Source of the DNA: a virus
Lineage: Duplodnaviria > Heunggongvirae > Uroviricota > Caudoviricetes
IMG/VR virus record: IMGVR_UViG_2576861092_000008
Length of the DNA: 11,644 bases
Reading direction: 5' to 3' (one strand)
Below the pieces are notes generated by a model. That model searched no databases. It was given only the letters and a program-made list of their open reading frames with translations, and was not told the DNA's origin. Shown one piece after another: positions 1 to 11,060 of the stretch; position 1 is the stretch's first letter; each line of letters opens with the position of its first letter. The position numbers and the translations under genes were made by a program.

Positions 1-582
1 GGTATTGCACAGAATATGGCGGCGATGCTGACCGGCAGCGAACAGAACTGGCGGGGATTCACCCGTTCCGTGCTGTCCATGATGACAGAAATTCTGCTTA
101 AGCAGGCAATGGTGGGGATTGTCGGGAGTATCGGCAGCGCCATTGGCGGGGCTGTTGGTGGCGGCGCATCCGCGTCAGGCGGTACAGCCATTCAGGCCGC
201 TGCGGCGAAATTCCATTTTGCAACCGGAGGATTTACGGGAACCGGCGGCAAATATGAGCCAGCGGGGATTGTTCACCGTGGTGAATTTGTCTTCACAAAG
301 GAGGCAACCAGCCGGATTGGCGTGGGGAATCTCTACCGGCTGATGCGCGGCTATGCCACCGGTGGTTATGTCGGTACACCGGGCAGTCTGGCTGACAGCC
401 GGTCGCAGGCGTCCGGGACGTTTGAGCAGAATAACCATGTGGTGATTAACAACGACGGCACGAACGGGCAGATAGGTCCGGCTGCTCTGAAGGCGGTGTA
501 TGACATGGCCCGCAAGGGTGCCCGTGATGAAATTCAGACACAGATGCGTGATGGTGGACTGTTCTCCGGAGGTGGACGATGA
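1..582 (+). CDS. H: Tail tape-measure protein, C-terminal fragment (5' end lies upstream of the window)
   Basis: Open reading frame runs from window position 1 in frame with the 16..582 ORF. Gly/Ala-rich C-terminus (GGAVGGGASASGG ... GGLFSGGGR) matches my recollection of the lambda gpH C-terminus. Stop TGA at 580-582 overlaps the ATG of the next gene (ATGA), the lambda H/M arrangement. Confidence 0.88.
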   Translation, partial: GIAQNMAAMLTGSEQNWRGFTRSVLSMMTEILLKQAMVGIVGSIGSAIGGAVGGGASASGGTAIQAAAAKFHFATGGFTGTGGKYEPAGIVHRGEFVFTKEATSRIGVGNLYRLMRGYATGGYVGTPGSLADSRSQASGTFEQNNHVVINNDGTNGQIGPAALKAVYDMARKGARDEIQTQMRDGGLFSGGGR

Positions 583-908
583 AAACCTTCCGCTGGAAAG
601 TGAAACCCGGGATGGATGTGACATCGGCTCCTTCCGTCAGGGAGGTGCGCTTTGGTGATGGCTATTCCCAGCGTGCGCCTGCCGGGCTGAACGCTGACCT
701 GAAAACGTACAGCGTGACGCTGTCTGTCTCCCGTGAGGAGGCCACGGCGCTGGAGTCGTTTCTGGCTGAGCACGGGGGCTGGAAGGCCTTTCTGTGGACG
801 CCGCCTTATGGTTACAGGCAGATAAAGGTGACCTGCGCAAAATGGTCGTCGCAGGTCAGTATGTTGCGTGTTGGGTTCAGCGCAGAGTTTAAACAGGTGG
901 TGAACTGA
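579..908 (+). CDS. M: Minor tail protein M (tail tip assembly)
   Basis: 109-aa ORF, MKTFRWKVKPGMDV..., same length and sequence as lambda gpM as I recall it. GGAGG Shine-Dalgarno at 568-572. Start overlaps the H stop, and its own stop overlaps the L start (TGATG). Confidence 0.92.
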   Translation: MKTFRWKVKPGMDVTSAPSVREVRFGDGYSQRAPAGLNADLKTYSVTLSVSREEATALESFLAEHGGWKAFLWTPPYGYRQIKVTCAKWSSQVSMLRVGFSAEFKQVVN

Positions 909-1606
909 TGCAGGATATCCGGCAGGAAACACTGAATGAATGCACCCGTGCGGAGCAGTCGGCCAGCGTGGTGCTCTGGGAAATCGATCTGACAGAGGTC
1001 GGTGGAGAACGTTATTTTTTCTGTAATGAGCAGAACGAAAAAGGTGAGCCGGTCACCTGGCAGGGGAGGCAGTATCAGGCGTATCCCATTCAGGGGAGCG
1101 GTTTTGAACTGAATGGCAAAGGCACCAGTACGCGGCCCACGCTGGCAGTCTCTAACCTGTACGGCATGGTCACCGGTATGGTGGAAGATATGCAGAGTCT
1201 GGTCGGCGGAACGGTGGTCCGGCGTAAGGTTTACGCCCGTTTTCTGGATGCGGTGAACTTCGTCAACGGAAACAGAGACGCCGATCCGGAGCAGGAGGTG
1301 ATCAGCCGCTGGCGCATCGAGCAGTGCAGCGAACTGAGCGCGGTGAGTGCCTCCTTTGTACTGTCCACGCCGACGGAAACGGATGGCGCTGTTTTTCCGG
1401 GGCGTATCATGCTGGCCAACACCTGCACCTGGACCTATCGCGGTGATGAGTGCGGTTATCACGGTCCGGCAGTCGCGGATGAATATGACCAGCCGACGTC
1501 CGATATCACGAAGGATAAATGCAGCAAATGCCTGAGCGGCTGTAAGTTTCGCAATAACGTCGGCAACTTTGGCGGCTTCCTTTCCATTAACAAACTTTCG
1601 CAGTAA
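908..1606 (+). CDS. L: Minor tail protein L (tail tip assembly, Fe-S cluster protein)
   Basis: 232-aa ORF, same length as lambda gpL. C-terminal cysteine cluster (CTWTYRGDECGY ... DKCSKCLSGC) is consistent with the [4Fe-4S] site described for gpL. Position between M and K. Confidence 0.92.
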   Translation: MQDIRQETLNECTRAEQSASVVLWEIDLTEVGGERYFFCNEQNEKGEPVTWQGRQYQAYPIQGSGFELNGKGTSTRPTLAVSNLYGMVTGMVEDMQSLVGGTVVRRKVYARFLDAVNFVNGNRDADPEQEVISRWRIEQCSELSAVSASFVLSTPTETDGAVFPGRIMLANTCTWTYRGDECGYHGPAVADEYDQPTSDITKDKCSKCLSGCKFRNNVGNFGGFLSINKLSQ

Positions 1607-1610
1607 TCCC

Positions 1611-2354
1611 ATGACAGAGACAGAATCAGCGATTCTGGCGCACGCCCGGCGATGTGCGCCAGCGGAGTCGTGCGGCTTCGTGGTAAGCACGCCGGAGGGG
1701 GAAAGATATTTCCCCTGCGTGAATATCTCCGGTGAGCGGGAGGCGTATTTCCGGATGGCTCCGGAGGACTGGCTGCAGGCAGAGATGCAGGGTGAGATTG
1801 TGGCGCTGGTCCACAGCCACCCCGGTGGTCTGCCCTGGCTGAGTGAGGCTGACCGGCGGCTGCAGGTGCAGAGCGATTTGCCGTGGTGGCTGGTCTGCCG
1901 GGGGGCGATTCACAAGTTCCGCTGTGTGCCGCATCTCACCGGGCGGCGCTTTGAGTACGGGGTGACGGACTGTTACACACTGTTCCGGGATGCTTACCAT
2001 CTGGCGGGGATTGAGATGCCGGATTTTCATCGCGGGGATGACTGGTGGCGTCACGGTCAGAATCTCTATCTTGACAATATGGAGGCTACTGGTTTTTACC
2101 GTGTCGCACTGACAGAGGCGCAGCCGGGCGATGTGCTGCTGTGCTGTTTTGGTTCATCGGTGCCGAATCACGCCGCCATTTACTGCGGCGACGGTGAGCT
2201 GCTGCACCATATTCCTGAACAACTGAGTAAACGAGAGAGGTATACCGACAAATGGCAGCGACGCACACACTCCCTCTGGCGTCACCGGGAATGGCACGCA
2301 TCTGCCTTTACGGGGATTTGCAACGATTTGGCCGCCGCATCGACCTTCGTGTGA
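1611..2354 (+). CDS. K: Tail tip assembly protein K (JAMM/MPN metalloprotease-like domain plus NlpC/P60 domain)
   Basis: ATG at 1611 lies 5 nt after the L stop (MTETESAILAH...). JAMM-type motif HSHPGG...SEAD in the N-terminal half; Cys/His/His NlpC/P60-like residues (DCYTLF ... NHAAIYCGDGELLHH) in the C-terminal half. The ORF-track start at 1569 overlaps L and is less likely. An internal Met at 1755 would give the 199-aa length I recall for the older lambda annotation, but would truncate the MPN domain. Confidence 0.88.
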   Translation: MTETESAILAHARRCAPAESCGFVVSTPEGERYFPCVNISGEREAYFRMAPEDWLQAEMQGEIVALVHSHPGGLPWLSEADRRLQVQSDLPWWLVCRGAIHKFRCVPHLTGRRFEYGVTDCYTLFRDAYHLAGIEMPDFHRGDDWWRHGQNLYLDNMEATGFYRVALTEAQPGDVLLCCFGSSVPNHAAIYCGDGELLHHIPEQLSKRERYTDKWQRRTHSLWRHREWHASAFTGICNDLAAASTFV

Positions 2355-2893
2355 AAACGGGGGCTGAAGCCATCCGGGCACTGGCCACACAGCTCCCGGC
2401 GTTTCGTCAGAAACTGAGCGATGGCTGGTATCAGGTACGGATTGCCGGGCGGGATGCAGGAGAAACCGAATTATCATCCCGTCTTAATGAGCCGCTGGCA
2501 AATGGTGCCGTGATCCACATCGTGCCGCGTCTTGCGGGAGCAAAAAGTGGCGGTGTGTTTCAGGCGGTGCTGGGTGCGGCGTTGATTGCTACGGCAATCT
2601 GGATGCCGGGGATCAGTATCGCTTTCAGTGACATTCTCTTTTCAATGGGTGCGGCGATGACGCTTGGTGGTGTGGCGCAGATGCTGGCACCGAAAGCCAG
2701 AACTCCCCGTACACAGACAACGGATAACGGCAAACAGAACACCTATTTCTCCTCACTGGATAACATGGTTGCCCAGGGCAATGTCCTGCCTGTTCTGTAC
2801 GGTGAAATGCGCGTGGGGTCACGTGTGGCATCTCAGGAGATCAGCACGGCAGATGAAGGGGATGGTGGTCAGGTTGTGGTAATTGGGCGGTAA
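2252..2893 (+). CDS. I: Tail tip assembly protein I (ubiquitin-like N-terminus, hydrophobic C-terminal region)
   Basis: 213-aa ORF MAATHTLPLASPGMARICLYGDLQRFGRR... with an in-frame stop at 2228-2230 just upstream, so 2252 is the first possible start. GAGAGAGG at 2232-2240 is a plausible RBS. Overlaps the 3' end of K in a different frame, as in lambda. C-terminus ...EGDGGQVVVIGR. Confidence 0.9.
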   Translation: MAATHTLPLASPGMARICLYGDLQRFGRRIDLRVKTGAEAIRALATQLPAFRQKLSDGWYQVRIAGRDAGETELSSRLNEPLANGAVIHIVPRLAGAKSGGVFQAVLGAALIATAIWMPGISIAFSDILFSMGAAMTLGGVAQMLAPKARTPRTQTTDNGKQNTYFSSLDNMVAQGNVLPVLYGEMRVGSRVASQEISTADEGDGGQVVVIGR

Positions 2894-2966
2894 TATTATT
2901 TTACTCATGTTCTAACTGATTTAATATTTATATCGAACACTGATAATTATTCTATTGGTTAGCTAT

Positions 2967-3305
2967 ATGAACAAAACGATTTTATTCTGCACGATTATTG
3001 CCTTAACAGGATGTAAATCTTTGGATTACGTAAAATCCGGAAAACCTGTAATGGAAGGTAATTCATTAAAAAATATTGATGAATTGTCAGGCTGCATATC
3101 CAGACAATGGGCTGGTAATGGAACACCTATAACATCCCTTCCTATTGAGAATGGGGTAAGCCTTTTAGTTCCACAGGCTATGGGGGGATATGATGTTGTG
3201 CTTGATATCAAAAAAGCAGGAAATGGCAGTAGTTTTACTCTTTATGAACGTGTACCAGCATTAACGCCAAAAATTTTTGCTGATAGTGTTAATGCATGTA
3301 AATAA
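2967..3305 (+). CDS. Predicted lipoprotein of unknown function (moron inserted between I and J; candidate outer-membrane lipoprotein)
   Basis: ORF lying in a sharply AT-rich segment (2894-3330) between I and J. N-terminus MNKTILFCTIIALTGC is a signal peptide with lipobox L-T-G-C; the +2 residue is Lys, not Asp, so outer-membrane sorting is expected. Mature part is about 96 aa with two further Cys. Followed by a hairpin terminator. Start is either ATG 2967 or an upstream TTG at 2955; no strong Shine-Dalgarno. Confidence 0.65.
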   Translation: MNKTILFCTIIALTGCKSLDYVKSGKPVMEGNSLKNIDELSGCISRQWAGNGTPITSLPIENGVSLLVPQAMGGYDVVLDIKKAGNGSSFTLYERVPALTPKIFADSVNACK

Positions 3306-3329
3306 TAGTTAATCCTGTCGTAACTCATG

Positions 3330-3357
3330 AGCCGCCTTTTGGGCGGCTTTGTTGTTT
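3330..3357 (+). terminator. Rho-independent terminator downstream of the lipoprotein moron
   Basis: Inverted repeat AGCCGCC (3330-3336) / GGCGGCT (3342-3348) with a 5-nt loop, followed by the T-rich run TTGTTGTTT. Lies 14 nt upstream of the J start codon. Confidence 0.6.
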
Positions 3358-3371
3358 ATGGAGTGTGAGGA

Positions 3372-6300
3372 ATGGGTAAAGGAAGCAGTAAGGGGCATAC
3401 CCCGCGCGAAGCGAGGGACAACCTGAAGTCCACGCAGCTGCTGAGTGTGATCGATGCCATCAGCGAAGGGCCGGTTGAAGGTCCGGTGGACGGATTAAAA
3501 AGCGTGCTGCTGAACAGTACGCCGGTGCTGGACAGTGAGGGGAATACCAATATATCCGGTGTCACGGTGGTGTTCCGGGCAGGTGAGCAGGAGCAGACAC
3601 CGCCGGAGGGATTTGAATCCTCCGGCTCCGAGACGGTGCTGGGTACGGAAGTGAAATATGACACGCCGATCACCCGGACCATCACGTCGGCAAACATCGA
3701 CCGTCTGCGCTTTACCTTCGGTGTGCAGGCACTGGTGGAAACCACCTCAAAGGGGGACAGGAATCCATCGGAAGTCCGCCTGCTGGTTCAGATACAGCGT
3801 AACGGTGGCTGGGTGACGGAAAAAGACATCACCATTAAGGGCAAAACCACCTCGCAGTATCTGGCCTCGGTGGTGGTGGATAACCTGCCGCCGCGCCCGT
3901 TTAATATCCGGATGCGCAGGATGACGCCGGACAGCACCACAGACCAGTTGCAGAACAAAACGCTCTGGTCGTCATACACCGAAATCATCGATGTGAAACA
4001 GTGCTACCCGAACACGGCACTGGTTGGCGTGCAGGTGGACTCGGAGCAGTTCGGCAGCCAGCAGGTGAGCCGTAATTATCATCTTCGCGGGCGCATTCTG
4101 CAGGTGCCGTCGAACTATAACCCGCAGACGCGGCAATACAGCGGTATCTGGGACGGAACGTTAAAACCGGCATACAGCAACAACATGGCCTGGTGTCTGT
4201 GGGATATGCTGACCCATCCGCGCTACGGCATGGGGAAACGTCTTGGTGCGGCGGATGTGGATAAATGGGCGCTGTATGTCATCGGCCAGAATTGCGACCA
4301 GTCGGTGCCGGACGGCTTTGGCGGCACGGAGCCGCGCATCACCTGTAACGCTTACCTGACCACACAGCGCAAGGCGTGGGATGTGCTCAGTGATTTCTGC
4401 TCGGCGATGCGCTGTATGCCGGTATGGAACGGGCAGACGCTGACGTTCGTGCAGGACCGACCATCAGATAAGGTGTGGACCTATAACCGCAGTAATGTGG
4501 TGATGCCGGATGATGGCGCGCCGTTCCGCTACAGTTTCAGCGCCCTGAAGGACCGCCATAATGCCGTTGAGGTGAACTGGACTGACCCGGATAACGGCTG
4601 GGAAACGGCAACAGAGCTTGTGGAGGACACGCAGGCCATTGCCCGTTACGGTCGTAACGTCACGAAGATGGATGCCTTTGGCTGTACCAGCCGGGGGCAG
4701 GCACACAGAGCCGGGCTGTGGCTGATTAAAACGGAGCTGCTGGAAACGCAGACCGTGGATTTCAGCGTGGGCGCAGAAGGGCTTCGCCATGTACCGGGCG
4801 ATGTCATTGAAATCTGCGATGATGACTATGCGGGTATCAGCACCGGTGGTCGTGTGCTGGCGGTGAACAGCCAGACCCGGACGCTGACGCTCGACCGTGA
4901 AATCACGCTGCCATCCTCCGGTACCACGCTGATAAGCCTGGTTGACGGGCAGGGGAGTCCGGTCAGCGTGGAGGTTCAGTCCGTCACCGACGGCGTGAAG
5001 GTGAAAGTGAGCCGTGTTCCTGACGGCGTTGCTGAATACAGCGTATGGGGGCTGAAGCTGCCGACGTTGCGCCAGCGCCTGTTCCGCTGCGTGAGTATCC
5101 GTGAGAACGACGACGGCACGTATGCCATCACCGCCGTGCAGCATGTACCGGAAAAAGAGGCCATCGTGGATAACGGGGCGCACTTTGACGGCGACCAGAG
5201 CGGCACGGTGAATGGTGTCACGCCGCCAGCGGTGCAGCACCTGACTGCCGAAGTCACCGCAGACAGCGGGGAGTATCAGGTGCTGGCGCGATGGGACACA
5301 CCGAAGGTGGTGAAGGGCGTGAGCTTCCTGCTCCGTCTGACCGTAACAGCGGACGACGGCAGTGAGCGGCTGGTCAGCACGGCCCGGACGACGGAAACCA
5401 CATACCGCTTCACGCAACTGGCGCTGGGGCGTTACACGCTGACAGTCCGGGCGGTAAATGCGTGGGGGCAGCAGGGCGATCCGGCATCGGTATCGTTCCG
5501 GATTGCGGCACCGGCAGCGCCTGTCACTATTGAACTGATACCAGGGTATTTTCAGATAACAGCGGTCCCGAAACTGGCTGTATATGACCCGACGGTGCAG
5601 TTTGAGTTCTGGTTCTCGGAAAAGCGGATTATCGATATCAGGCAGGTTGAAACCAGCGCGCGTTATCTTGGTACGGCGCTGTACTGGATAGCCGCCAGTA
5701 GCAATATTAAGCCGGGTTATGATTATTACTTTTATATCCGCAGCGTGAACACCGTTGGTAAATCGGCATTCGTGGAGGCCGTCGGTCGGGCGAGCGATGA
5801 TGCGGAAGGTTACCTGGATTTTTTCAAAGGAGAAATCGGGAAAACACATCTGGCCCAGGAGTTGTGGACGCAGATTGATAACGGTCAGCTTGCGCCGGAC
5901 CTGGCTGAAATCAGGACGTCCATTACGAATGTCAGCAATGAAATCACGCAGACCGTCAATAAAAAACTGGAAGACCAGAGTGCGGCAATCCAGCAGATAC
6001 AGAAAGTTCAGGTTGATACAAATAATAACCTGAACAGCATGTGGGCCGTGAAACTGCAGCAGATGAAGGACGGACGCCTTTATATTGCGGGTATCGGTGC
6101 CGGTATTGAGAACACCCCTGACGGCATGCAGAGTCAGGTGCTTCTGGCTGCTGACCGGATTGCGATGATTAATCCTGCGAATGGCAACACAAAGCCGATG
6201 TTTGTTGGTCAGGGCGATCAGATATTCATGAACGACGTGTTCCTGAAACGCCTGACGGCTCCGACCATTACCAGCGGCGGTAATCCTCCGGCATTTTCCC

Positions 6301-6851
6301 TGACACCGGACGGGCGGCTGACGGCGAAAAATGCCGATATCAGCGGTAACGTGAATGCGAACTCCGGGACGCTCAACAACGTCACGATTAACGAGAACTG
6401 TCGGGTTCTGGGAAAATTGTCCGCCAACCAGATTGAAGGCGATCTCGTTAAAACAGTGGGCAAAGCTTTCCCCCGGGACTCCCGTGCACCGGAACGGTGG
6501 CCATCAGGGACCATCACCGTCAGGGTTTATGACGATCAGCCGTTTGACCGGCAGATTGTTATTCCGGCGGTGGCATTCAGCGGCGCTAAACATGAGCGGG
6601 AGAATAACGATATTTATTCGTCATGCCGCCTGATAGTACGGAAAAACGGTGCTGAAATTTATAACCGTACCGCGCTGGATAATACGCTGATTTACAGTGG
6701 TGTTATTGATATGCCAGCTGGTCGCGGCCACATGACGCTGGAGTTTTCGGTGTCAGCATGGCTGGTGAATAACTGGTATCCCACAGCAAGTATCAGCGAT
6801 TTGCTGGTTGTGGTGATGAAGAAAGCCACCGCAGGCATCAGTATCAGCTGA
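3372..6851 (+). CDS. J: Tail tip / central tail fibre protein J (host specificity protein)
   Basis: 1159-aa [27 protein letters not shown]..., preceded by a GAGG RBS. Size and order match lambda gpJ (which I recall as 1132 aa). C-terminus ...[35 protein letters not shown] resembles the lambda J receptor-binding end as I remember it. Confidence 0.95.
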
Positions 6852-6918: not shown

Positions 6919-7518
6919 ATGCGTAAAGTTTGTGCAGTCATTTTGTCCGCAGCCATCTGTCTGTCCGTATCCGGTGCGCCTGCATGGGCGTCTGAACATC
7001 AGTTCACACTGAGCGCGGGGTATCTTCATGCCCGTACGAACGCTCCCGGCAGTGATAATCTGAACGGGATTAACGTGAAATACCGTTATGAGTTTACGGA
7101 CGCGCTGGGGCTGATTACGTCCTTCAGTTATGCCAATGCTGAGGATGAGCAAAAAACGCACTACAGCGATACCCGCTGGCATGAAGATTCCGTGCGTAAC
7201 CGCTGGTTCAGCGTGATGGCGGGGCCGTCTGTACGCGTGAATGAATGGTTCAGCGCGTATTCGATGGCGGGTGTGGCTTACAGCCGTGTGTCGACTTTCT
7301 CCGGGGATTATCTCCGCGTAACTGACAACAAGGGGAAAACGCACGATGTGCTGACCGGAAGTGATGACGGTCGCCACAGCAACACGTCTCTGGCGTGGGG
7401 GGCTGGCGTGCAGTTTAACCCGACCGAATCCGTGACCATTGACCTTGCTTATGAAGGTTCCGGTAGTGGCGACTGGCGAACGGATGCATTTATTGTTGGT
7501 ATCGGATACCGTTTCTGA
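6919..7518 (+). CDS. lom: Outer-membrane protein Lom (Ail/OmpX/PagC family beta-barrel), lysogenic-conversion moron
   Basis: 199-aa ORF with signal peptide MRKVCAVILSAAICLSVSGAPAWA and C-terminal ...VGIGYRF ending in aromatic Phe, typical of outer-membrane beta-barrels. GAGAGG RBS 6 nt upstream. Position after J matches lambda lom. Confidence 0.92.
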   Translation: MRKVCAVILSAAICLSVSGAPAWASEHQFTLSAGYLHARTNAPGSDNLNGINVKYRYEFTDALGLITSFSYANAEDEQKTHYSDTRWHEDSVRNRWFSVMAGPSVRVNEWFSAYSMAGVAYSRVSTFSGDYLRVTDNKGKTHDVLTGSDDGRHSNTSLAWGAGVQFNPTESVTIDLAYEGSGSGDWRTDAFIVGIGYRF

Positions 7519-7622: not shown

Positions 7623-7650
7623 AAGCCCGTGGGTTCTGGCGGGCTTTTTT
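7623..7650 (+). terminator. Rho-independent terminator downstream of lom
   Basis: Stem AAGCCCG (7623-7629) / CGGGCTT (7640-7646) with a 10-nt loop, then a T-run ending at 7650. Lies just upstream of the stf RBS (GGGGTG) and ATG 7662. Confidence 0.6.
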
Positions 7651-7661
7651 GTGGGGTGAAT

Positions 7662-10600
7662 ATGGCAGTAAAGATTTCAGGTGTACTGAAAGACGGCACA
7701 GGAAAACCGGTACAGAACTGCACAATCCAGCTGAAAGCAAAACGTAACAGCACCACGGTGGTGGTGAACACGCTGGCCTCAGAAAATCCGGATGAAGCCG
7801 GGCGTTACAGTATGGACGTTGAGTACGGTCAGTACAGCGTTATTCTGTTGGTGGAAGGATTCCCGCCGTCACATGCCGGGACCATCACCGTGTATGAAGA
7901 TTCCCGACCCGGTACGCTGAATGATTTTCTCGGTGCCATGACGGAGGATGATGCCCGTCCTGAGGCACTGCGCCGTTTTGAACTGATGGTGGAAGAGGTG
8001 GCGCGTAACGCGTCCGCGGTGGCACAGAACACGGCAGCCGCGAAGAAGTCAGCCAGCGATGCCGGCACATCAGCACGTGAGGCGGCAACCCATGCGACTG
8101 ATGCTGCAGGCTCAGCACGCGCAGCCAGCACGTCAGCCGGACAGGCCGCGTCGTCGGCTCAGTCAGCATCTTCCAGCGCAGGAACGGCATCAACAAAGGC
8201 CAGTGAAGCATCGAAAAGTGCTGCTGCTGCAGAGTCCTCAAAAAGCGCGGCAGCTACCAGTGCCGCTGCGGCGAAAACGTCAGAAACGAATGCGGCAGCG
8301 TCACAACAATCAGCAGCCACTTCTGCATCCGCCGCGACCACGAAGGCGTCAGAAGCAGCCACCTCAGCACGGGATGCGGCGGCCTCAAAAGAGGCAGCGA
8401 AATCATCAGAAACGAATGCATCATCAAGTGCCAGTAGTGCAGCTTCCTCGGCAACGGCGGCAGGAAATTCCGCGAAGGCGGCAAAGACGTCCGAGACGAA
8501 CGCCAGGTCTTCTGAAACGGCAGCGGGACAGAGTGCCTCGGCTGCGGCAGGCTCAAAAACAGCGGCTGCGTCGTCTGCCAGTGCCGCGTCAACAAGTGCC
8601 GGGCAGGCCTCAGCCAGTGCCACCGCCGCCGGAAAATCGGCAGAAAGCGCCGCATCATCCGCTTCAACAGCCACAACGAAGGCTGGCAAAGCCACTGAAC
8701 AGGCCAGTGCAGCAGCAAGGTCTGCTTCCGCAGCGAAGACATCCGAGACGAACGCGAAAGCGTCGGAAACCAGCGCAGAATCCTCAAAAACGGCTGCCGC
8801 ATCGTCCGCCAGTTCGGCGGCGTCATCGGCATCATCGGCGTCTGCTTCAAAAGATGAGGCGACCAGACAAGCGTCCGCAGCGAAGGGCAGCGCCACGACA
8901 GCATCCACGAAGGCGACAGAGGCAGCTGGCAGTGCGACGGCGGCAGCACAGAGCAAAAGTACGGCGGAATCCGCGGCAACGCGCGCCGAGACAGCGGCAA
9001 AACGGGCAGAGGATATTGCATCCGCCGTGGCGCTTGAGGATGCAAGTACGACGAAAAAGGGGATAGTACAGCTCAGCAGTGCGACCAACAGTACGTCTGA
9101 AACGCTGGCGGCAACGCCAAAGGCAGTAAAATCAGCCTATGACAATGCAGAGAAACGTCTGCAGAAAGACCAGAACGGCGCTGATATACCCGATAAGGGA
9201 CGCTTCCTGAACAACATTAACGCGGTCAGTAAAACAGACTTTGCTGATAAGCGTGGTATGCGTTATGTGCGGGTTAACGCTCCTGCAGGTGCAACATCTG
9301 GAAAATATTACCCTGTTGTTGTTATGCGTTCTGCTGGCTCAGTAAGCGAACTGGCATCAAGGGTCATTATCACCACGGCAACGCGAACCGCAGGCGATCC
9401 GATGAATAACTGCGAGTTTAACGGATTTGTTATGCCTGGTGGCTGGACTGACAGGGGGCGTTATGCTTATGGAATGTTCTGGCAATATCAAAACAATGAA
9501 CGAGCCATCCACTCAATAATGATGAGTAATAAGGGCGATGATTTGCGCTCTGTGTTCTATGTTGATGGCGCTGCTTTCCCTGTTTTTGCGTTTATCGAAG
9601 ATGGCCTGTCAATATCCGCACCTGGTGCTGATCTCGTTGTTAATGATACGACCTATAAGTTTGGGGCAACAAATCCGGCGACTGAATGTATCGCGGCGGA
9701 CGTTATCCTTGATTTTAAGAGTGGGCGTGGTTTTTATGAGTCTCATTCGTTAATCGTTAACGATAACTTGTCGTGCAAAAAACTTTTTGCCACAGACGAA
9801 ATTGTAGCGCGTGGTGGTAATCAGATTCGAATGATAGGTGGGGAGTATGGTGCATTATGGCGTAATGATGGCGCTAAAACTCACCTGCTGCTTACCAATC
9901 AAGGTGATGTTTATGGTGGCTGGAATACATTAAGACCGTTTGCTATTGATAACGCAACCGGCGAACTGGTTATTGGAACCAAACTGTCCGCAAGTCTGAA
10001 CGGTAATGCATTAACAGCAACAAAGCTGCAAACGCCAAGACGGGTTTCTGGTGTTGAGTTTGATGGTTCCAAAGATATTACTTTAACCGCCGCGCATGTG
10101 GCTGCTTTTGCCAGAAGGGCAACGGATACATATGCCGATGCGGATGGTGGCGTTCCCTGGAATGCCGAATCAGGCGCTTACAATGTCACCCGCTCTGGCG
10201 ACAGCTATATTCTGGTTAACTTCTATACCGGAGTCGGAAGTTGCCGGACCTTGCAGATGAAGGCACATTACAGAAATGGAGGTCTGTTCTACCGTTCCTC
10301 AAGAGATGGCTATGGTTTTGAGGAAGACTGGGCAGAAGTTTATACCTCGAAAAATCTTCCACCAGAAAGCTACCCAGTCGGCGCACCAATCCCGTGGCCA
10401 TCAGATACCGTTCCGTCTGGTTATGCCCTGATGCAGGGGCAGGCTTTTGACAAATCTGCATACCCGAAACTTGCAGCGGCTTATCCGTCAGGCGTGATCC
10501 CTGATATGCGTGGCTGGACGATTAAGGGCAAACCTGCCAGTGGTCGGGCCGTATTGTCTCAGGAACAGGACGGCATTAAATCGCATACCCACAGCGCCAG

Positions 10601-11060
10601 CGCATCCAGTACGGATTTGGGGACGAAAACCACATCGTCGTTTGATTACGGCACTAAATCCACGAATAACACTGGTGCGCATACCCATAGTTTAAGTGGC
10701 AGCACGAATGCAGCTGGTAATCACAGCCATAGAGATGGCCGTCGATTTAACCCCAGTGTTTTTAAAGATACTTATCAATATGGTTATACAAGCTCAGGTC
10801 AAAATACCTGGGGTGTACAAGGCTCAGTAGGTATGTCTACGGGGTGGTTAGCTAATACCAGTACAGATGGTAATCATAGCCACTCACTGTCCGGCACAGC
10901 AGCATCTGCAGGTGCACACGCGCATACTGTCGGTATTGGTGCTCATACGCACTCCGTTGCGATTGGTTCACATGGACACACCATCACCGTTAACGCTGCT
11001 GGTAACGCGGAAAACACCGTCAAAAACATCGCATTTAACTATATTGTGAGGCTTGCATAA
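7662..11060 (+). CDS. stf: Side tail fibre protein Stf (intact, 1132 aa; mosaic)
   Basis: ATG 7662 gives [26 protein letters not shown]..., the lambda Stf (orf401) N-terminus as I recall it. Contains a long Ala/Ser/Thr-rich repeat region, a lower-GC central module, and a His-rich C-terminus ([27 protein letters not shown]) ending ...[11 protein letters not shown]. The GTG at 7629 used by the ORF track lies inside the terminator hairpin and is rejected. Confidence 0.9.
8011..9010 (+). repeat. Ala/Ser/Thr-rich degenerate tandem repeat region within stf (coding low-complexity)
   Basis: Motif A-K-[TS]-S-E-T-N-A recurs with codon starts at 8271, 8397, 8481 and 8733, spacings of 126, 84 and 252 nt, all multiples of 42 nt. 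The high GC and low complexity generate long spurious ORFs in other frames on both strands. Confidence 0.7.

Follow-up and report, generated by a model that had tools for sequence, protein, structure and literature searches.

The spacer between the tail genes I and J of a lambda-like Escherichia coli prophage (IMG/VR record IMGVR_UViG_2576861092_000008) very probably holds a horizontally acquired cassette of the moron type, consisting of an AT-rich leader, a gene for a small lipoprotein and a terminator, and this cassette is not a component of the tail. The window analysed here is the whole stretch of 11,644 nt and is the tail-tip end of a lambda-like late operon (Table 1). Morons in the tail operons of lambdoid phages have been known since 2000, such as HK97 gp15, lom and Gifsy-2 sodCI. 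A moron-type cassette in such an operon is a known kind of element; the lipoprotein family itself is unstudied. An earlier note on this DNA, drawn from the letters alone, had already described a horizontally acquired moron, and this view is supported by the absence of the gene from relatives, by its composition, by a diversity pattern of its own and by homologues in other junctions. We tentatively propose that the product is an outer-membrane lipoprotein acting in superinfection exclusion.

The gap between I and J measures 478 bp (2894-3371) and has a GC content of 0.356, in good agreement with the roughly 470 bp of much more AT-rich DNA that had been noticed at this place. The leader reaches 0.22 and the open reading frame 0.363, compared to 0.572 for I and 0.566 for J. 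Over the complete 11.6 kb, sliding windows of 478 bp have a mean GC of 0.543 with a standard deviation of 0.058, and the lowest of them starts at 2891 with a GC of 0.351, about 3.3 standard deviations below the mean. The depression is real, and its minimum falls on the insert. A second stretch of low GC (below 0.47 in windows of the same size) lies at 9273-10200 and 10600-10775 in the 3' part of the side tail fibre gene, as is typical of a swapped receptor-binding module. In lambda I is followed directly by J, as the earlier note had stated, with a spacer of 60 bp that has no gene inside. Aligned with lambda, the window carries about 430 extra bases that replace about 16 lambda bases at this junction. 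An exact 8-bp direct repeat, TTGGGCGG, flanks the insert at 2883-2890 in the end of I and at 3339-3346 in the 3' arm of the terminator stem. It extends to 19 nt at 74% and could be a microhomology left by insertion or deletion; an 8-mer repeat is expected by chance in 800 bp.

The insert is an accessory gene. A megablast search with positions 2700-3500 against 50,697 phage records returned 110 lambda-like phages that match the flanks only, with a coverage of 43-44% in two pieces. Among 5,426 complete E. coli genomes, about 4,290 contain together about 8,700 I-J junctions, and the insert is found at 334-350 of these (338 genomes) with 95-100% identity, which is about 4% of the junctions. The lipoprotein gene is present in about 6% of complete E. 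coli genomes. In a spread sample of the remainder, the junctions are contiguous and of the lambda type with the 60-bp spacer. The insertion that had been postulated between I and J is thus supported by the roughly 96% of E. coli junctions without the gene and by the lambda-like phages that match only its flanks, and a gene carried by only about 350 of about 8,700 junctions is not a conserved tail component of lambda-like phages. Carriers include UTI89, APEC O1, S88, IHE3034, NU14, UM146, ATCC 11775 and O104:H4 outbreak strains, and also isolates from dogs, cats, pigs, chickens and surface water. The prophage is located at ompW in UTI89 and O104:H4, and the gene is annotated as hypothetical protein WP_001332187.1. 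Its locus tag in UTI89, UTI89_RS29190 (locus L093, 20268-20606), is out of series with the neighbours RS07275 and RS07280, which suggests that the gene was missed in the first annotation and added later. This may be the reason why the gene is absent from published studies; a literature search in a limited library, by accession and by topic, found no paper on the lipoprotein. None of the 50,697 deposited phage records has the lipoprotein with more than 32% identity, despite the presence of phages with the same C-terminus of J, and it occurs in about 60 IMG/VR contigs. Carrier prophages may rarely be isolated as plaque formers.

The cassette has a history that differs from that of the surrounding tail genes. 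Among 42 distinct IMG/VR loci the leader has a nucleotide diversity of 0.013, the gene one of 0.0105 and terminator plus spacer one of 0.0104. The flanks are 4-10 times more diverse than the cassette, with values of 0.083 for K, 0.057-0.091 for I and 0.045-0.12 for the first kb of J. Because of this difference we read the pattern as one recent acquisition at the I-J junction, with a subsequent spread among diverged tail modules by recombination in the flanks. The 13 intact alleles in 59 loci have a mean nonsynonymous divergence (dN) of 0.005 and a mean synonymous divergence (dS) of 0.049, and the resulting dN/dS of about 0.10 indicates that the lipoprotein gene is under purifying selection. 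Three loci of this set have indels. Frameshifting indels were seen in loci L062 (3279-3616), L063 (6001-6338) and L064 (6001-6341) and in P0002, and the existence of these few frameshifted copies means that the gene is dispensable for maintenance of the prophage.

The 112-residue product starts with MNKTILFCTIIALTGC. The open reading frame with a lipoprotein signal that had been reported earlier is confirmed, and its start was correct to within one base. The signal consists of MNK, the stretch TILFCTIIA and then L-T-G-C16, which fits the pattern [LVI][ASTVI][GAS]C with the lipidated cysteine at residue 16. Proteins with a lipobox are lipidated and cleaved by Lgt and Lsp, and according to the Lol rule a lysine at position +2, in place of the aspartate that serves as retention signal, directs them to the outer membrane. 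The lipobox and the lysine after Cys16 therefore predict a lipidated outer-membrane lipoprotein. The earlier note did not recognise the protein, and searches of Pfam, NCBIfam, PADLOC and PDB sequences likewise gave no relative; the only assignment is PHROG 914, matched over the full length (E 7.3e-33, residues 1-112 on profile positions 1-118 of 118). This is the family of the protein, and since PHROG 914 has no functional annotation, membership is mute on function. No Pfam domain was detected at E <=0.1 for the protein or at E <=0.01 for 49 relatives, and NCBIfam gave nothing for the protein; across Pfam, NCBIfam and PADLOC only a sub-threshold VirB7 match to the signal peptide and chance hits appeared. 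The PDB contains no related sequence, as two profiles gave matches to signal peptides only, and the single Rfam match, to GcvB, was far below threshold and is due to chance.

Close relatives with 48-62% identity were found only in Enterobacteriaceae (Klebsiella, Enterobacter, Citrobacter, Kluyvera, Jejubacter and Salmonella), where all of them are named hypothetical protein or lipoprotein. They share the lipobox with the following residues (GCKSLD), C43, MGGYDVVLD and L..ER as invariant elements. Among 14 close homologues G15 and C16 never vary, and only one close relative, with a frameshifted C-terminus, has lost C111. A profile search in 1.84 billion cluster representatives returned 115 members, nearly all of 105-125 residues, and in an alignment of 49 members the only invariant residues are the lipid-bearing cysteine and the cysteine pair 43/111. 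We infer that C43 and C111 form a disulfide in the periplasm. An AlphaFold2 model from 14 sequences has a mean pLDDT of 84 and a pTM of 0.75, with the core above 90. In this model the signal peptide is followed by one short helix, a strand and one long helix, then by four strands, and a helix closes the C-terminus. The fold thus predicted is an alpha/beta domain with a disulfide staple, and its nearest match is the Francisella tularensis lipoprotein Flpp3 (DUF3568; PDB 6pny, 2mu4 and 9nlt). The resemblance is moderate, with 6-9% identity and no match to the Pfam DUF3568 domain. Since many helix-grip or TBP-like domains without relation to it, such as KA1, DUF302 and the N-domain of BamC, reach similar scores, the resemblance stands for a class of fold and does not assign the protein to a family. 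The viral models include a single good match, an uncharacterised protein of a Pseudomonas phage, and Llp, Rtp45 and Cor were not listed.

The intrinsic terminator assigned to the gene in the earlier note is indeed present as a hairpin followed by a T-run, but it is not unique to the cargo. Its stem of 9 bp includes 6 G-C pairs and is followed by TGTTGTTTAT, and its fold energy of -17.4 kcal/mol (z = -3.2) is better than that of all 200 shuffled sequences. The empty spacer of lambda has a homologous hairpin that shares its core (CCGCC...GGCGG), and this is likewise followed by a T-run and by the TTTATGGAG...GAGGAATG run that leads into J. Hairpin and T-run together, AACCGCCTGCGGGCGGTTTTGT (locus L004, about 1700-1754), are homologous to window positions 3329-3371 and sit immediately before the ribosome-binding site of J. 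Thousands of E. coli prophages keep the lambda-type spacer with this hairpin. The gene could have landed just upstream of an existing hairpin, or equally the lambda spacer could be a remnant after loss of the cassette. Homologues in other slots are directly followed by a different strong hairpin and T-run of their own, ahead of the ribosome-binding site of the next tail gene, and this is also the case between K and I, where lambda has no spacer because its K and I overlap. Since the terminator shares the low diversity of the gene and every other slot has its own hairpin, gene plus terminator is the normal unit of this lipoprotein family.

Table 1. Features of the window, in order of position.
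Feature	Position	Strand	Remarks
H, 3' end only	16-582		
M	579-908		
L	908-1606		
K (JAB plus NlpC/P60)	ends 2354		
I, tail assembly gene	2252-2893	+	left flank, outside the cassette; longest open reading frame, Pfam Lambda_tail_I E 4e-24; RefSeq start of the equivalent gene in identical prophages corresponds to 2318
AT-rich leader	2894-2966	+	upstream of the lipoprotein gene; any promoter of the cassette is expected here
GATAAT, candidate -10 hexamer	2942-2947	+	5/6; best -35 is TTTAAT at 2920, spacer 16
Lipoprotein gene, 112 aa	2967-3305	+	339 bp, stop codon included; PHROG 914
Signal peptide	2967-3014	+	lipobox L13-T14-G15-C16; Cys16 is the predicted lipidated mature N-terminus
Intrinsic terminator	3329-3359	+	stem-loop 3329-3349, then T-rich tail to 3359; abuts the ribosome-binding site of J
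J, tail tip and host specificity	3372-6851	+	right flank; compared with lambda J
lom	6919-7518		directly downstream of J
Side tail fibre gene	7629-11060		
tfa	after side tail fibre gene		

Homologues are found at three junctions of tail modules. In E. coli prophages (about 60 IMG/VR loci) the gene lies between I and J, while in Klebsiella, Kluyvera, the coliphages Fraca and LMessi and several IMG/VR and metagenome loci it lies between K and I, and in Enterobacter, Citrobacter and IMG/VR loci with HK97-type tails between the chaperone gene T and the tape measure gene. The homologues of Klebsiella, Kluyvera and IMG/VR loci in the K-I slot and those of Enterobacter and Citrobacter in the T-tape measure slot are 48-59% identical to the window protein. 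All of the roughly 85 tail-module loci have the gene co-oriented with the tail genes, and in these slots its GC content is 9-21 points below the flanks. A scan of genome contigs with narrow peptide patterns found one locus (Kluyvera). Distant members with 24-28% identity also occur outside this setting. One belongs to a phage replication module and another adjoins a head module; each lies on the strand opposite to its neighbours, and this implies that they are transcribed separately there. A third distant member is part of an island adjoining an integrase-like gene.

The suggestion in the earlier note that the I-J junction might be a hotspot for insertions holds for the entire series of tail-tip genes, which has varied cargo between K and I, I and J, and M and L. 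In Fraca (locus L001, 5648-5994) and LMessi (locus L002, 5647-5994) a second, unrelated lipoprotein reading frame, MRKFLSILACSLIIVGC..., stands directly upstream of the homologue in the K-I slot. It has no Pfam match, and the annotation of Fraca uses an internal start at 5725. The tail-tip modules of both phages thus hold a tandem pair of lipoprotein genes, and in Fraca cor follows as well, downstream of J. One IMG/VR prophage (locus L065, 2100-6900) has an island of 4.8 kb between K and I, with an Arc-like repressor, Bro-N, KilA-N, a helix-turn-helix protein of the Cro/CI type, the lipoprotein homologue and a reading frame of 149 aa without Pfam match. An annotated HNH endonuclease lies between I and J in mEp021 (locus L090, 45958-46524). 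A metagenomic phage (locus L094, 7217-7894) has at the same junction a multi-pass membrane protein of 225 aa, PF24838 (8xMP), and the lipoprotein homologue between K and I. In Gifsy-2 (locus L096, 11239-12401) the M-L junction holds a Lom homologue together with sodC, the latter on the opposite strand, which makes it another tail-tip junction occupied by envelope morons.

Among known systems, gp15 of HK97 is a close parallel in layout. Its gene, the founding moron, located between the tail chaperone gene T and the tape measure gene, is expressed from the prophage, and the protein is proven to confer superinfection exclusion by blocking DNA entry (PMC3594210). Like the gene described here, it is a co-oriented gene for a small envelope protein in a lambdoid tail operon, with deviating composition and a terminator, and the homologue of Enterobacter and Citrobacter occupies exactly the gp15 slot, from T to the HK97-type tape measure gene. 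However, gp15 is a YebO-like inner-membrane protein without homology to the window protein, which is a predicted lipoprotein with a soluble domain, and the slot in the window is I-J and not T-H. Small lipoproteins offer the other parallel. Llp, acting on FhuA, and Rtp45, acting on LptDE, are described as periplasmic lipoproteins that bind the periplasmic side of the receptor (PMC12685063). Cor of T1 and Llp of T5 are small lipoproteins that block infection (PMC11990801), and the lipoproteins Lpp021 and Lpp010 of mEp phages block infection as well, with Lpp010 excluding lambda (PMC11893012). Llp, Rtp45, Cor (of T1, phi80 and N15) and Lpp021/Lpp010 resemble the window protein as small phage lipoproteins that are encoded within or beside tail or receptor-binding genes, and Llp and Rtp45 in addition by their location at the periplasmic face of the outer membrane, which for the window protein is predicted. 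We tried the exclusion lipoprotein of mEp021 as a homologue and rejected it, as it has 72 aa, is encoded downstream of J on the other strand and aligns by its signal peptide only. The Tai systems for tail-assembly interference are unrelated; they lie mostly upstream of the packaging module, and the paper describing them has no lipoprotein or signal peptide.

A role in superinfection exclusion would involve the following steps. After export by Sec, the precursor would be processed by Lgt and Lsp, which lipidate it at Cys16 and cleave it, and the lysine at +2 would lead to sorting to the outer membrane by Lol. At this membrane the compact domain, which has about 95 residues and C43-C111 as a staple, would bind an envelope component that is conserved across Enterobacteriaceae, and other siphophages would thereby be hampered in their infection. 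A protein that is made late might also spare progeny virions from loss on the debris of lysed cells. Q-modified polymerase reads through terminators. Because Q-antiterminated transcription must cross the gene and its terminator to reach J, the protein should be produced during late lytic growth at least. In a lysogen, a weak promoter in the leader might also drive transcription of the gene as far as the terminator.

Several observations weigh against this proposal. Only the signal peptides align with Llp, Rtp45, Cor, mEp021 gp81 and Bor, and these proteins are missing from the results of the fold searches. The size differs as well, since the mature window protein has about 96 aa, compared to about 6 kDa for Rtp45 (PMC12685063) and a precursor of 72 aa for mEp021 gp81. 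PADLOC gave nothing for the protein, and the phage Fraca has both a homologue and an annotated cor. A consensus scan of 2500-3700 found no sigma-70 promoter on the + strand, and the best relaxed pairs, including GATAAT with TTTAAT, reach only 8/12 in a leader with about 78% A+T; the earlier note had placed GATAAT at exactly the right position and had rightly called the promoter not confidently defined. A moron in the strict sense of Juhala and Hendrix is an additional transcription unit, with its own promoter and terminator, between two genes that are neighbours in related phages; for the promoter the cassette has only these weak candidates. Further points concern J. The J protein of the window is 83% identical to lambda J overall, with more than 90% over most of its length and only 46-48% over the last 170 aa (6342-6851). 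The same C-terminus (>=97%) is found in many long-tailed Stx1a/Stx2a phages, in JLK-2012, in PhiR5_1 and in 'PPompW' prophages, and more than 50 records of Stx and other phages have it without the lipoprotein gene. Conversely, lipoproteins that are 99-100% identical are linked to at least three receptor-binding types of J, with 97-99%, about 64% and about 46% identity to that of the window, and also to some J genes of no detectable match. Because of these several J types, and because the J C-terminus also occurs without the gene, there is no tight pairing with the receptor specificity of the phage itself, unlike the pairing of llp with pb5. We therefore rejected the idea that the gene tracks the receptor-binding domain of J as llp tracks pb5; the lipoprotein does not co-vary with the C-terminus of J. 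The linked J types may share one receptor. Moreover, the gene borders on the start of J and the receptor-binding end is 3.4 kb away, so that recombination would in any event separate it from receptor specificity. Finally, carriers have about 2.8 lambda-like junctions per record (sample of 60) compared to about 2.0 overall, a weak and confounded comparison. The expectation that carriers have fewer lambda-like tail modules was not borne out in this comparison, which is a weak test.

A variant of exclusion, in which the family would form a new class of factors that exclude phages, would avoid the difficulty with J. From the periplasmic face of the outer membrane, and without masking a receptor, the protein would block a step common to lambda-type tail tips, for example the crossing of the periplasm by the tape measure or tip proteins, or the use of a conserved envelope cofactor. 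Such a mode of action would account both for the presence of the gene among T, H, K, I and J in three different siphophage lineages and for its lack of any tie to the receptor-binding end of J. We nevertheless consider this variant rather unlikely. A somewhat better, still doubtful, chance is to be given to lysogenic conversion, in which the lipoprotein would benefit the host by serum or stress resistance or in host interaction, similar to lambda Bor and Lom or Gifsy-2 SodCI. Bor and Lom of lambda, and SodCI with the Lom homologue of Gifsy-2, are likewise accessory exported envelope proteins encoded in or near the tail gene region, and they have roles in serum resistance, adhesion or oxidative defence. 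However, they belong to different families, as the window protein has no Pfam match to Bor/Iss, Lom, Sod or DUF3568. The occurrence in isolates from dogs, cats, pigs, chickens and surface water indicates no specificity for a pathotype, the fold match is weak and generic, with several other domains scoring about equal to Flpp3, and the scan found no promoter for expression in the lysogen. The empty promoter scan fits a protein that only helps in the lytic cycle, made from the late-operon transcript with no promoter of its own and without a role in the lysogen; it would act on the envelope late in infection, for example to condition the disruption of the outer membrane or to mask envelope components at lysis. 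T5 Llp acts during lytic growth, and masking of debris is an accepted role of such lipoproteins (PMC11990801, PMC12685063). The uniform orientation with the late operon in all of the roughly 85 tail-module loci, the good Shine-Dalgarno sequences of the Klebsiella, Enterobacter and Fraca copies, and the distance of only 32 bp between the stop of K and the start of the homologue in Klebsiella, which leaves little room for a promoter, point in the same direction. On the other hand, antiterminated late transcription alone gives little reason for the strong terminator that follows the gene in every slot, the distant members on the opposite strand must have their own promoters, and the gene is neither in nor adjoining the lysis cassette. 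We regard a purely lytic role as improbable.

It is very hard to maintain that the protein belongs to the tail tip as a conserved part, structural or for assembly, which merely happens to be missing in lambda. In Enterobacteriaceae the gene is always found among T, H, K, I and J and shares their transcription, as such a component should, but about 96% of the I-J junctions of E. coli lack it, as does every close lambda-like phage of the collection, its position varies among three junctions with distant members outside tail modules, and frameshifted copies exist (L062-L064 and P0002). In addition, the Sec/lipoprotein signal takes the product out of the cytoplasm, the site of tail assembly. The frameshifted copies, together with the lack of any carrier at high identity among the 50,697 records of isolated phages, would also agree with a neutral passenger that hitch-hikes by recombination between tail modules. 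This explanation has little probability in view of the dN/dS of about 0.10 within E. coli, the invariance of GCKSLD, MGGYDVVLD and the cysteine pair across genera at about 50% identity, and the roughly 115 cluster representatives that have the same length and architecture.

The gene is found in much-used pathogen strains, where it is annotated merely as a hypothetical protein. If it encodes a lipoprotein for host fitness, extra-intestinal pathogens would have in it a further envelope factor of prophage origin, next to Bor, Lom and SodCI. If superinfection exclusion, the function that we tentatively favour, is true, the protein would be a second, unrelated occupant of the classic slot of HK97 gp15, and it would constitute an unrecognised barrier at the cell surface that is relevant to phage therapy and to competition between prophages.

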